The notes under the pieces were generated by a model. It saw nothing but the letters and a program-made list of their open reading frames with translations, did not search any database and had not been told where the DNA came from. From contig NC_043004.1 of the NCBI RefSeq assembly GCF_006345805.1, forward strand, positions 100,130,001 through 100,194,000: a stretch of 64,000 nt of DNA, in the 5' to 3' direction. This DNA comes from Octopus sinensis (Eukaryota). Numbering within the stretch: position 1 is the stretch's first letter; every line of letters begins with the position of its first letter. Shown piece after piece: positions 16,327 to 62,957 of this stretch. The position numbers were made by a program, and so were the translations under genes.

Positions 16327-16524
16327 AATAGAAATATTAAAATTACTAAGTCTCTCTAAAGGAGATTACGACAGCGTTACTGGAAATTAAATATGGCAGT
16401 CTTATATATATAAGGCTAATCTGTCGCTGATTAGCTCCATGTTTAAATATGGCAGTCTTATAAATATAAGACTAAAGCTGTCGCTGATTAGCTCCATGTA
16501 AATATGGCGATAACTATTAATTAT
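16327..16524 (-). mobile_element. Family D fold-back element fragment with internal tandem duplication
   Basis: Homologous to 21899-22159 and 62715-62957; within (TA)n. Confidence 0.7.
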
Positions 16525-16539
16525 ATGTAAGTATATATA

Positions 16540-16686
16540 ATATAAAAAAAGTTCCGCTATCATTGCCCCTGTCGGTAAATCGCAGTTTTTTCAGCAGAGT
16601 GGGTTAATATCGCCCGGTTGTTAGCGGATTGCCCGTTGGGATATGTGGTCCTTTCTATTGTAAGGGAAAATCAATATTCTCTCACC
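16540..16686 (-). mobile_element. Family F, TA-flanked structured element distantly similar to D/E
   Basis: Reverse complement shares TGATTTTCCCTT...GGACCAC and a similar stem order. Confidence 0.35.
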
Positions 16687-17085
16687 TATATATATATATA
16701 CTGATGATGATTACCTCATTTTGTCTCATATAAAGCCTCATTGTACTGATTGACTTTCATCCTTACATGTGCTCGGATATGAGTTTTCAAACCAGTCAAT
16801 GACGTACATGTTATTAAACACAAGTGACACATGCGATCGCATCTCTACACATAATTAATTTCCTCCGTTTATGGCAGTTGCTGATGATCTTTGAGATGAC
16901 TTTAGCATAAGGCTTGGTTCTTGCACGCTGTGTGAAAGACCAGACATGTATTTGGAGAGTGGAGGCGCAGGCAGTACTATCTCACGATTTATTAAGAATT
17001 TTGTTAACCGTCATGAAGTCGAAAACAATGTTTTTTATAGTATTTCGTAGCACACTCATAAAGCTATAAATAATTATATGTATAA

Positions 17086-17250
17086 AGGTACAGGCGTGGT
17101 TGTGTGGTAAGAAGCTTGCTTCCCAATGACATGGTTCCGGTTTCGGTCCCATTGCGTGGCATCTTGTGCAATTTGTCTTCTACTTTAGTCGCGAGCCGTT
17201 CAAAGCCTTGTGCGTAGATTTGATAGATGGAAACTGAAAAGATGATCGTA
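17086..17250 (+). mobile_element. SINE family A 5' half
   Basis: Head ggcgtggttgtgtggtaag...ggtttcggtccc; ends in (TA)n. Confidence 0.8.
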
Positions 17251-17456
17251 GTTCATATATATATATATATATATATATGTTTGTATATATATATATATAT
17301 ATGTTTGTATATACAATATATATATATATATATATATATATATTATATATATATATATGTATATATATACATGCATATATATATATATGTATATATATAC
17401 ATGCATATATATATCTAATAAAAATATATTTCAATTATATATATATATATATATAT

Positions 17457-58333: not shown

Positions 58334-58638
58334 GGTGAGGGCGCGTGGCTTAGTGGTTAGGGCATTCGGCTCATGATCGTAAGGTTGTGAGTTCGATTCC
58401 CGGCGACGCGTTGTGTCCTTGAGCAAGACACTTTATTTCAGCTGGCAAAAATGAGTTGTACTTGTATTTCAAAGGGTCAGCCTTGTCACTCTCTGTGTCA
58501 CGCTGATTATCCCCGAGAACTACGTTAAGGGTACACGTGTCTGTGGAATGCTCAGCCATTTGCACGTTAATTTCACGAGCAAGCTGTTCCGTTGATCGTA
58601 TCAGCTGGGACCCTCGTCGTCGTAACCGGCGGAGTCTT
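58334..58638 (+). mobile_element. SINE (CORE-like head, family B tail), 13-bp TSD
   Basis: TSD tattataaggctt at 58321-58333 and 58639-58651; A and B boxes present. Confidence 0.92.
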
Positions 58639-60705
58639 TATTATAAGGCTTAGCTTGACCGATTAGCTGTCGGTGGAAACTGGTCGGCGTTATATGTGCG
58701 GAGGCATGTCGTGTCTGTGTGTATGTTTGTTTATCATGGTGTGTGTGTGTGTGTGTGTACCCGCGTGTATGTGTAGGTATATTTGCTCTTATATATGCAT
58801 ACATACACACAAATACTCACACATTCACATACACACACACACATATATACATATATACGCATGTATTACATATATATATGTATATAATGTATGCGTATAT
58901 ATATATATATATAATACGTATACACATACATACATAAACTATATTAACATATATATTCCCACACACACACACATATATATATGTGCGTATATATATGTAT
59001 ATATATATATATGTATATACATATGTATATATATCTACATATGTATATATATATATATATATATACTATATATGTATATGAATATATGCATATATATACA
59101 CACACACATATATATATATATATATATTATATATATTATATATATATATATATATATATATATATATATATATATCTACATAGATATACTTCATATACAC
59201 ACAACTACATGTACGTATGTAAGCATGCAGTAGGGATTCTGGGCAGATGCTGTCTGTGTCAACACACAACATAGAACAGAACAAGTTGAGCAATGGTCAA
59301 ATAAGATTGTTAGTTACTGAACTTCATGTGGTATATCTTTGAAAAGGTGACTGAGGTGTCTCTGAGGTAAGTGTCGGTGATCTGGTACATTAATAATGAA
59401 AACTAGCCATTGGTGTAGAGTTTCCTCTAGAGAATCTATTCAATGTTATCGGATACTGTTATGTATTCTTGCTGACAAAAAAAAAAAAAACACACAGAAA
59501 GCAAAAATTTACTGAATATTATACGACGTAAAAACATCTGCCGGATGTTAATCACATAAGCCATAACAGAACTTACTGCGGCATGCCTTCGTTTTGAAAA
59601 TTGGTGTTGTTGTGTATACTTAGCTGGAAAGAACGACGGTCGGACGATGACAGTAACACTATGTAACTAGATCTTGGAAACATTCGACACACAGATATAG
59701 CTGGTGTTAAAGCAAAACTCAATTTAGACAACTTGCTAAACATTGGTAACTCGCTTGAAATTTGGTTACGTATGAACAAATAATACGCCGTTTTATTTAT
59801 CAGACAGAATCTGAACAAAACACGGTTTACTGCTTTAGATAACACATCCTACACTCACAAATACTCCGGCACACACATAAACACACATCCTGTCTATATT
59901 TTTCGCCATCTCACTTTCTCCATCTTTCAATCATATATTTGTGTGTATATATATATATATATAATATATATATATATGATACACATACACACACATACAT
60001 ATATATTTATATATATATATATGTATGTATATGTATTATCCATGCAGTCTTAGTGTTGCCCAGTCAATATTTACAAGATTATTGGATTTACTGACACAGA
60101 GGAGGAGCATAAAAGAAAAACAGAAGAATATTTTCTTCTTCGTTTATTTTTATCTTCGCTTATGCTTTTCATTTTTACATTTTTTTTTCGTTTTTTTTTT
60201 GTTTCTTTTTGCTTTTTTTACATTTGAACAGAATCTCCGATATTATTTGCGGTGTGCACAGGTAATCTTATGAGGAGACTGTTTGCTCAGGGGTTTCGAT
60301 TCTTCGTTATGTCCATTTTATTTCATTTGAAGCAACACTAACTTTGTGGAAGGAATAGCGGTGACCACCGTTCGTTCTCTGTACCAAAAGTGACTGTATT
60401 CCCCTGCAGTATTACTTAAATTTTGTACAGTTTTATCATTAGAATTTTAAGTTTTATATTAGGAATTTCAGTTATAGCCACACCTTAATAACAGTTAAAT
60501 GTTGATGAGCAAATATGTAGTGTTACAGACAATTATTTTATAAATAAATTGGACAATTTTTAAACTTTCTTGATACTGCATTTAAATCTTTCTCTTTGTA
60601 CTGCGTTTCATTATCAGGCCAGTCTGTCTAATGTAATTACTGTTAGTGCCGACTATATCAAATATTTTCGCAAGTAGTGGAAACACACTAATACTGACGA
60701 GTTGA

Positions 60706-61478
60706 TTGTTGAATAGCTGTGACGAGTTTGAGTCTTTATATGTCTTTATATGGGTTTAACCTGGAGTGATAGATTGTGTGTGAGACAGACAGACTGACAG
60801 AGACAGAAACAGCCAGACGGGCAGAAAGAAGGGAAGAGAGGAGAAATTTATGACTATAGAATATGAAACTATCTTGGTATATCGTAATAGGAATTTAAGT
60901 CGCCTATTCATATTGTAAGTAAACTATGAATTTTATATACTCAGCGACGTTTGTAAAGTTTCTTAGCTCTTCTTGAATTGTTGATTACGATAATGAATTG
61001 ATTAGGATGCATATACAGTGTGAGGTAGACCGGGCGGACGGACTGTTTTGAAATGGTTATTACTCTAACATGTTTGTTAAATAGCTGTGACGAGTTTGGA
61101 CCTTTATATGGGTTCAACCTCGAGTGAAATGCTGTGTATTTGTGTGTGTGTGTGTGTGTGTGTGTGAGTGAGAGAGAGACAGACAGACAGACAGACAGAC
61201 AGATATACAGACAGACAAACAGAAACAGACGGACAGACAGAAAGGGAGAGAGGTGAAACATGATTATAGAATATGAAGCATTATATTAGAATATCATAAT
61301 TATGAATTTAAGTCCCCTGTCCATATTGTAAGGAAACTGAATTTTTATATACTCAGCGATGTTTGTAATATTTCACAGCCCTTCATGAATTGTTCATTAC
61401 TATAATGAATTGATCAGAATACATATAAAGAGGATGGGGCAGAGCGGACGGACTTTTTTGAAATGTCTATTATTCAAC
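60706..61478 (+). repeat. Diverged tandem duplication (~370 and ~405 bp units)
   Basis: atagctgtgacgagtttg at 60713/61081; ttttatatactcagcga at 60931/61342; gcggacggac at 61034/61444. Confidence 0.9.
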
Positions 61479-61984
61479 CCCGGAGGAGTTGTCCGACCGG
61501 TACCATTCGGCTTGTGGTGTCTTAGCCTTTTTTTTCTTTCTAGGTGAAGCCATGGCGCTGTGGACGACAGAGCATCGCGTGCTTGCCTACGTCAGTTACA
61601 TGAAGAATAACGAATCTGTCACAGCAGCTCAGCATGAGTTTCGGCGCCACTTCAACATTCCCAGAAATCAGGTTGTTCCCACCCGTAACACAATCTTACG
61701 TTGGGTGAATGCACATCGCATACGAGATACACTAATGAATAGGAGATTGGAGGGGGCACCATGAACGGTACGAACCCCCGGAAAATATGGAACGTGCCAG
61801 ACAAACATTGATACGGAGTCCGAATCGCTCAGCTCTCAGCCATTCTACTGAACTTTCCTCACTTAATTTTGACAAATGCTAATTCAGTACAAACACATGA
61901 ATATCGACACAATTTCTTTGCAGATAAAATTACTGGTTTTTTTTTAACTTTTCAAAAACGTCCGTCCTCTCTACCCACGTCATA
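61428..61984 (+). mobile_element. Deleted Tc1/mariner-superfamily element (DUF4817-like HTH N-terminus)
   Basis: From 61552 MALWTTEHRVLAYVSYMKNNESVTAAQHEFRRHFNIPRNQVVPTRNTILRWV...VRTP; imperfect TIRs agagcggacggacttttttgaaa / tttcaaaaacgtccgtcctctct. Confidence 0.8.
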
Positions 61985-62714
61985 CGTGCCTCTGTGTGTC
62001 GTAAATATAATTAGAAGCCAAGCTTACAAGCCTTTGGCGTATATTGACTTTAGAGAAAATAGTGTTATATGGGAGTATATAAACCCTCGACGGAAAAAAA
62101 GGGGGCATTAGTACGCTCTCCATGTATACTAATGCCAAATCATTTTCGTTCGTGGCTTTATATGCCCCAATATTAGACTATTTTCTATAGTCAATATACG
62201 GTAAAAACTTATAAGCTTAAGCTTATAATTATATTTATGTATGTATGTATGTATGTATGTATGTATGTATGTACGTATGTATGTATGTATGTATGTATGT
62301 ATGTATGTACTACGCAGACATAGATTATCAACGAACTTTGATTACTTTCATATGTAGTACGCAACATAAAATACGACTAGAGTATTCCACATTTTTGTTA
62401 TTGAATATTTTCACACTCCATTGTTGTCCAGACTATTAATAAAGATGAATGTATGTATGATCGTGCGTGTATGTTTAGGCACGCGTGTGTGTGTTTCTGT
62501 GTGTGTCAGTGTACGTGCGTGCGTATTAGTATCCATGTGTTTCTGTGTGTGCGCGCAGATTCGTAGAATGTTAATCGGCAGACCTTCGTATTTATATGTA
62601 TGTAAGAACATACAGGTATTAGATGGTATATATATATATATAATATATATATATAATATATATATATATATATATATATATATATATATATAATATATAT
62701 ATATAATAATAGTT

Positions 62715-62957
62715 ATCGTCTGTAGCTGCCGGTCAAGTAGTGTGGAGCGACTGACCTCCCTTGTTCGAAGGTTATATGGATACAGTTTGTGTATCAAATA
62801 GCTAACTTAAGGCGATGGCCTCATGGAGCTAATAAGCGGACAGCTTTATTCTTATTTTTATAAGAATACCATATTAGTATGGCGATAACTATTATTTTCC
62901 GGGAACGCTGCCGCTGTTCTCTTTTAGAGAGACTTAGTAATTTTAATATTTCTATTA
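62715..62957 (+). mobile_element. Family D element, diverged copy
   Basis: Aligns with 21950-22159; (TA)n flanks. Confidence 0.75.

Follow-up and report, generated by a model that had tools for sequence, protein, structure and literature searches.

The 64,000-nucleotide (nt) window analysed here, taken from Octopus sinensis (NCBI RefSeq assembly GCF_006345805.1, contig NC_043004.1, positions 100,130,001 to 100,194,000 of the forward strand), contains copies of a TA-flanked repeat family, D and E, for which a first-pass annotation had proposed a covarying multi-stem RNA fold. Its statement that TA flanks and a common helix order are found in D at 21950-22159 (+) and 62715-62957 (+) and in E at 17457-17672 (-) agrees with the sequences, folds, and alignments, and D and E are real homologues with a common fold. 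A covariance model built from relatives scores these three copies at 143-178 bits, two of the three being in its training set. The copy of subfamily D2 (62718-62957, +) runs from a predicted hammerhead cut site (after 62720) to the second of two recurrent 3' end sites (site 2), followed by (TA)n; its branched domain, comprising helices P1, P2, P3/P4a/P4b, and P5, occupies 62745-62936 (+; covariance model 145.7 bits; centroid fold). It is accompanied by a short inverted arm (62706-62718, -), whose 3' end corresponds to site 1 when the sequence is compared with the unit, an arrangement that recurs in relatives. Subfamily D1 is represented by a copy at 21944-22159 (+; 142.7 bits), which extends from approximately 16 nt past the predicted cut site to near site 2 and then into (TA)n, and by an inverted arm (21849-21948, -) that covers the tail and hairpin P0 and reaches into the next unit. 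This arm abuts an unrelated coding fragment, a 112-codon open frame at 21512-21847 (-), which gives no match in Pfam and which we take to resemble the C-terminal region of open reading frames (ORFs) of R4/Dong-type elements without long terminal repeats (non-LTR). The E copy (17457-17677, -; 177.6 bits) runs from about the predicted cut site to site 2 and (TA)n. The D stretch at 16327-16524, previously listed among the D copies, proved to be a rearranged D1-type 3' fragment (16326-16524, -) with a short inverted site-1 piece, an internally duplicated P2-3'/P4 segment, and a tail to site 2; neither the upstream motif nor stem 1 is present in it, its stem 2 has lost the 5' half, and it reaches 30 bits with the covariance model.

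A first look at the genome returned 915 candidates for the D2 copy, 40 of which were scored, all being 99-100% identical. For the D1 copy, 2299 genomic candidates were found, with the 39 best other full-length matches 96-99% identical, and for the E copy 3908, with the 39 best other full-length matches 92-96% identical. Two internal patterns matched exactly 3708 and 1949 times in the 2.72-Gb host genome, which is rich in TA microsatellites, compared with 0 and 5 matches for the reversed controls. Genome-wide DNA and pattern searches, aimed at distant subfamilies and at copies resembling the stretch F discussed below, revealed at least nine subfamilies (D1, D2, E, E3, G, G2, H, J, and K; labels coined in this analysis). 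They form five main lineages (D, H, J, K, and G/E) with between-lineage identity of 0.44-0.58, while identity within subfamilies ranges from 0.97 (D2) down to 0.80 (K), a spread implying that copying occurred in recurrent waves.

Elsewhere in the genome, full copies consist of head-to-tail units of 344-365 nt: 57 cut-to-cut units of D2 measure 352-365 nt, and units measure 365 nt in D1 (L116), 344 nt in E, 364-366 nt in J, and 353 nt in E3, with a tandem period of 362 nt in D2 and 364 nt in J. The segment absent from the window copies carries a type I hammerhead motif as well as hairpin P0 and the strand that completes a long stem. The conserved RNA is approximately 350 nt long rather than the ~200 nt first reported, and the upstream motif noted at that time is one strand of the long stem, its partner lying beyond the truncation point. 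Likewise, the reported absence of a hammerhead core holds for the 5'-truncated window copies, because the predicted cut site is approximately where the D2 and E copies begin and lies some 16 nt before the start of the D1 copy, but not for full-length relatives, which carry one. Hammerhead motifs with paired stems I-III are present in D2, D1, E, E3, G, H, and J; the core has a U3-A8 exchange in D1 and D2, a published variant of hammerheads of Penelope-like elements (PLEs) (PMC4209133); E, E3, G, and H have the usual C3-G8, and J has a changed position 4. Upstream of the hammerhead, the D2, D1, and E loci examined show the previous unit, an inverted arm, or unrelated flank and no ORF, which does not fit the pseudo-LTR (pLTR) position in an autonomous element once proposed for these copies. 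The units are non-coding, no PLE protein match overlapping any of them, and GC content is 0.30-0.47 among covariance-model matches. One full unit each of D2, D1, and E, folded as a circle, proved unusually stable, with z-scores of -5.6, -6.6, and -2.8 (60 shuffles each). A 392-nt contig present in four sequencing runs corresponds to one unit plus an assembly overlap; it fits tandem DNA as well as a circle and is not counted as evidence. The runs consulted consisted of assembled contigs, and none of them is recorded as RNA. A pattern scan of metagenome contigs for the family gave 0 matches. At L040:1729-1976, a run of approximately 50-nt tandem repeats is built from the 5' half of the E hammerhead alone.

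All alignments were made from sequence alone, and stem positions rest on folds, alignments, and the covariance model. Among 29 natural copies, 85.9% of cells in the helices of the first-pass annotation pair, compared with 79.3% in shuffles, a control that ignores relatedness, and 37.5-45.6% with slid partners. Both sides have changed in 21 of the 37 pairs of these helices, and hairpin P4a is weak in the same copies (57.9% paired, poorly aligned). Pairs folded from one copy were standard in four other clades in 259/379, 218/332, 263/367, and 278/422 cells, depending on the root, with null means of 178, 168, 180, and 231 for the same four roots; the observed value was reached by 0/100 neutral simulations at each root. 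Two-sided changes yielded standard pairs in 58-73% of cases versus 42-43% in simulations (0, 2, 0, and 0 of 100 simulations as high), and at two of the four roots the number of different compensatory pairs did not stand out (27/100 and 34/100). Single-pair and aggregate tests were applied to a 90-copy set after removal of a J match in L018 and three unassigned copies; a second alignment of 86 copies, including J and K, was thinned (at most 10 copies per clade, 20 of 25 K loci, and seven J copies). J and K, unseen in the first-pass annotation, keep most helices; P1 and P4 of J are shifted relative to the other copies in the 86-copy alignment, yet present in J's own fold. No single pair was significant in the 90 or the 86 copies by a G-test with average product correction against simulated alignments, the effective number of sequences being 14 and 9, respectively. 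A structure-blind, family-wise scan for length-6 helices (86 copies, 200 simulations) recovered hammerhead stem I (0/200), P3 (p=0.005), and the inner part of P2 (p=0.01), while P0 and P1 failed; P2 and P3 passed with the pairing-aware score alone, and with the G score stem I was the only one of these to pass. By G score, p=0.035 was also obtained for one helix that is not part of the consensus (columns 155-167). The proposed covariation is thus upheld for whole helices, two of those originally described passing, but not for individual pairs, and the fold of D and E is real and larger than earlier reported.

An ordinary short interspersed element, miniature inverted-repeat transposable element (MITE), or satellite, in which common ancestry and AT-rich chance pairing only mimic covariation, would agree with the lack of single-pair significance at an effective number of 9-14, with the MITE look that the inverted arm gives the D1 copy, and with 5'-truncated window copies that alone are not unusually stable, folding no better than shuffles (z -1.34 and +0.14). 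It is nevertheless very improbable, given that the tree-aware simulations are exceeded, that copies are dispersed in thousands, as counted by the two internal patterns, and that inverted arms differ in length among copies. Furthermore, no tRNA-like head was found by ARAGORN (0 genes in 8 loci) or as a tRNA match in Rfam scans, although a very degenerate head could escape both.

The 3' ends of the insertions fall at two sites, approximately 162-179 and 213-239 nt past the cut, and usually run into (TA)n (D2 39/40, D1 29/40, E 19/36, the main-arm end being biased by the query). In loci retrieved with an internal pattern, 52 of 57 ends lie at site 1 or 2, as do 42 of 43 J ends. Site 1 is located in the linker after P4b and site 2 after P5; each lies in an AU-rich strand of the branched domain that is predicted to be unpaired. 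In D1, D2, E, E3, and J alike, the ends have equivalent places in the fold, one on each side of the P3 3' strand and P5. Head-to-head insertions were observed in 63 of 108 loci, 55 with one arm per site, one with both arms at site 2, and seven with one unclassified arm, so that one arm lies at each site in 55 of 56 classifiable cases (18/18 in the pattern-derived set). One arm per end is the 'tail' signature of Penelope. The start lies >6 nt upstream of the cut site in 57 of 98 segments and within 6 nt of it in 7, implying that the template runs through the cut; given this lack of a pile-up of 5' ends, the start of two window copies at the cut may be due to chance. The tail at one end, the inverted 5' copy, and the microsatellite target correspond to the insertion pattern described for PLEs, which comprises partial tandems, an inverted 5'-truncated copy, a one-end tail, and a microsatellite target (PMC8557442; PMC3846280), and the suggested tie of the structured RNA to PLEs is supported in this respect.

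The first-pass annotation had also considered an unrecognised ribozyme and a hammerhead-less PLE clade. The branched domain has no match to a described family at gathering score in Rfam scans of the window and six loci, which gave nothing relevant beyond sub-threshold, mostly microsatellite-driven matches (for the window, among the best 150 of 251; for the loci, among all 67), and some loop positions are nearly invariant. Rfam, however, also misses these hammerheads, so its blank says little. A branched domain acting as a new self-cleaving ribozyme, or marking a Naiad-like clade, is in our view highly unlikely, since the same unit bears a type I hammerhead motif, invariance among 29 copies is confined to 8 of 210 columns, read-through of the domain is seen in tandem copies, and internal initiation by PLEs explains the two fixed ends (PMC11167929); the ribozyme reading is not needed.

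Many copies of PLEs with a GIY-YIG endonuclease are present in the genome, the best 150 of 5029 candidates having been scored. Intact elements of the Neptune/Nematis type (L150:374-4077, L151, and L154:2942-6018) have ORFs of 775-781 amino acids (aa) with matches to RVT_1 (just under cut-off) and GIY-YIG and a Neptune/Nematis-type cysteine linker, and end in (TA)n (cf. PMC8557442). They also have an upstream second ORF, which in L150 is a separate 479-aa frame overlapping the reverse transcriptase (RT)-endonuclease ORF, small hammerhead motifs of their own, and, in their 3' region, repeated promoter-like boxes followed by a short end that bears a hammerhead. Descriptions of PLEs generally give one ORF. 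The PLE RT fragment at L018:246-1268 (-), which is C-rich and located beside nested D2 and J insertions, is only 27-33% identical to the two main intact families and represents a third PLE lineage.

If the units were solo pLTRs of an autonomous PLE that has escaped the survey, the fold would be that element's RT-binding region. Frog retrozymes are often homologous to pLTRs (bioRxiv 10.64898/2026.07.22.740005), the survey of 150 of 5029 candidates is partial, and the commonest intact PLE has the U3-A8 core in common with D1. We regard this as improbable, because the units have no attached ORF and therefore no RT plus GIY-YIG frame between pLTRs, the regions upstream of the hammerhead in D2, D1, and E loci are those described above, and the short, AU-rich pLTRs of intact PLEs are without the fold. 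In addition, a PLE protein match occurs in just 11 of 223 element-bearing loci, in nine of which it is on the opposite strand or split off by a TA run, and in the other two (L078 and L254) 0.4-1 kb from the unit.

The family can be assigned to animal non-LTR retrozymes, as a new family of a described element class, because every sequence-level feature tested was found: a type I hammerhead motif per unit in D2, D1, E, E3, G, H, and J, non-coding head-to-tail units in the 150-450 bp range, GC content under 50%, and co-occurring autonomous PLEs, as in animal retrozymes described so far (Cervera & de la Pena 2020, PMC7229834; Li, Clavereau & Pollet 2026, bioRxiv 10.64898/2026.07.22.740005). Mussel retrozyme units, for example, are 350-390 bp long (same sources). 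Features of the class further include self-cleavage in vitro, unit-length RNA that accumulates in linear and circular form, and, where present, target-site duplications of more than 4 bp, which (TA)n flanks would mask. It is highly probable that D and E are 5'-truncated copies of such non-coding tandem retrozyme units of 344-365 bases, likely mobilised by PLEs, with the branched domain likely presenting two start sites; the intact PLE ORFs of the same genome are candidate partners. Following published retrozyme and PLE work, the tandem array would be transcribed, hammerheads would cut out monomers, probably as dimers given the short palindromic stem III, and a host ligase would close the monomers to circles. 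The PLE protein would then nick both strands of a (TA)n tract and prime cDNA internally, at site 1 for one strand and at site 2 for the other; reading round the circle would produce more-than-unit copies, and the two cDNAs would join head to head. In our own extension of this scheme, the RT may bind P1-P5.

Several observations weigh against this assignment and mechanism. Besides the missing single-pair covariation, the failure of P0 and P1, and the dependence of P2 and P3 on the pairing-aware score, a pattern search of the old subfamily K for a hammerhead core gave 0 matches. The branched domain was not found as a pLTR in any of 39 PLE-bearing loci, where model matches are separate insertions, within a survey that scored just 150 of 5029 GIY-YIG candidates, and the tail resembles the commonest intact PLE no more than expected by chance (81-649 of 1000 shuffles being as good). 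Moreover, eight of nine predicted frog retrozymes showed no cleavage in a published test (bioRxiv 10.64898/2026.07.22.740005), and hammerhead cleavage is dispensable for PLE insertion in vitro (PMC11167929).

The octopus units differ from animal retrozymes described to date in forming nine subfamilies, down to 44% identity, with one architecture, helix-level covariation, and two ends mapped on the structure, and from most frog retrozyme families, which have a sister pLTR, in that none was found. In the sections consulted of published retrozyme descriptions, which report circles self-paired by energy folding and homology to pLTRs, neither a covarying body nor mapped ends were found (PMC7229834; bioRxiv 10.64898/2026.07.22.740005). 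Neptune/Nematis PLEs likewise insert into (TA)n, form partial tandems with an inverted, 5'-truncated copy and a one-end tail (PMC8557442; PMC3846280), and have a minimal hammerhead, including the U3-A8 variant (PMC4209133), but the units have no ORF, and their tail is approximately 50-65 nt long, compared with 30-40 nt, and holds one P3 strand and hairpin P5. Naiad resembles them in (TA)n bias, tandem and inverted insertions, and the tail; unlike the units, which have a hammerhead motif and no ORF, it is described with an N-terminal endonuclease and without a canonical hammerhead (PMC8557442). In the Anolis Poseidon RNA template (Frangieh et al. 2024, PMC11167929), two internal RT starts downstream of the hammerhead similarly define the tail, both target strands are cut and extended, and targets are AT-rich. 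The Poseidon start sites, however, lie in an AC-rich stem-loop inside the ORF and show no strand difference in vitro (PMC11167929), whereas the sites of the octopus units lie in AU-rich strands of a non-coding branched RNA, with one site per arm almost without exception. Literature searches listed no description of this family and no paper about cephalopod retrozymes or a covarying retrozyme body, and the family may sit in Repbase/Dfam under uninformative names; in the main text of a recent octopus repeat annotation, 'ribozyme' and 'hammerhead' are absent (PMC13282606), and its repeat library could bear on novelty.

That an RT-recognition domain is involved, one of the options of the first-pass annotation, gains support because both fixed ends fall in unpaired strands of the fold. 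The branched body would most likely serve as an RT loading and initiation scaffold exposing two start sites, a role about as probable as a purely RNA-level one. The same retrozyme may, as a serious though somewhat less than even alternative overall, keep its body for circle stability, ligation, transcription, or a host protein, with the RT reading just the two AU-rich strands: animal retrozyme circles are generally highly self-paired (PMC7229834), and P0, P1, and P2 are conserved though away from both end sites, whereas the recurrence of ends at equivalent places in the fold of D1, D2, E, E3, and J, flanking the P3 3' strand and P5, speaks for the scaffold. This alternative changes the role of the fold, not the element class. 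More tentatively, and with rather less confidence than we place in the retrozyme assignment, the units may be a long-lived, protein-free circular RNA lineage whose at least nine subfamilies diversified independently of any present-day pLTR, with P1-P5 as a selected docking signal by which two AU-rich start sites, one per nicked strand, are placed for a dimeric Penelope-type RT-endonuclease. If true, this would provide a natural, covariation-defined minimal template for target-primed reverse transcription by PLEs.

Penelope-like RTs are the closest relatives of telomerase RT. To our knowledge, very little has been learned about how PLE RTs select their RNA and generate the 'tail', and PLE mobilisation of animal retrozymes is still a hypothesis. 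Both become directly testable in one genome, where young copies are near-identical, nine subfamilies provide natural variants, the fold is defined, two start sites are mapped, and candidate enzymes are intact. As the element class has already been described, the surprise is moderate.

The first-pass annotation had included a further stretch, F (16540-16686, -), as a third family with the fold. F is a single-copy, TA-flanked stretch beside the D fragment that is not shown to belong to the family, and it was rejected as a member on six tests (DNA, pattern, profile, covariance model, alignment, and folding). A genomic DNA search returned one candidate, F itself; its pattern gave six other matches, all of an unrelated repeat; two profile hidden Markov models produced no match at E<=10; its body had no covariance-model match; and it folds like its shuffles (z -0.23). 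The best local alignment ranks 17/200 against shuffles among 16 tests, a measure that is weak at this distance, as the true member K ranks 36/200 against D2. Given this weakness, F may still be a very old, decayed copy.

Other repeats with hammerhead-like motifs were also observed. A long-stem-II hammerhead motif at 14326-14380 (+) of the window lies in a different, rearranged TA-flanked repeat, within inverted repeats at 13777-14670 and related to 23828-24172, which is probably another retrozyme-like or pLTR family. At approximately 63770-63885 (-), a hammerhead-like motif with a very long stem II was seen by eye close to where a TA-flanked repeat ends. The flanks of L012, L051, L066, L094, L147, L148, L154, L159, and L166 contain several further, unrelated hammerhead families (stem II of 14 to >50 nt), and the genome looks, from these sequences, very rich in hammerhead families. 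Long near-perfect palindromes at 24865-25145, 41785-41960, 49730-49942, and 24213-24360 of the window are probably MITE-like or fold-back insertions, and an open frame at 50862-51314 (-) presumably represents a Tc1/mariner transposase fragment.

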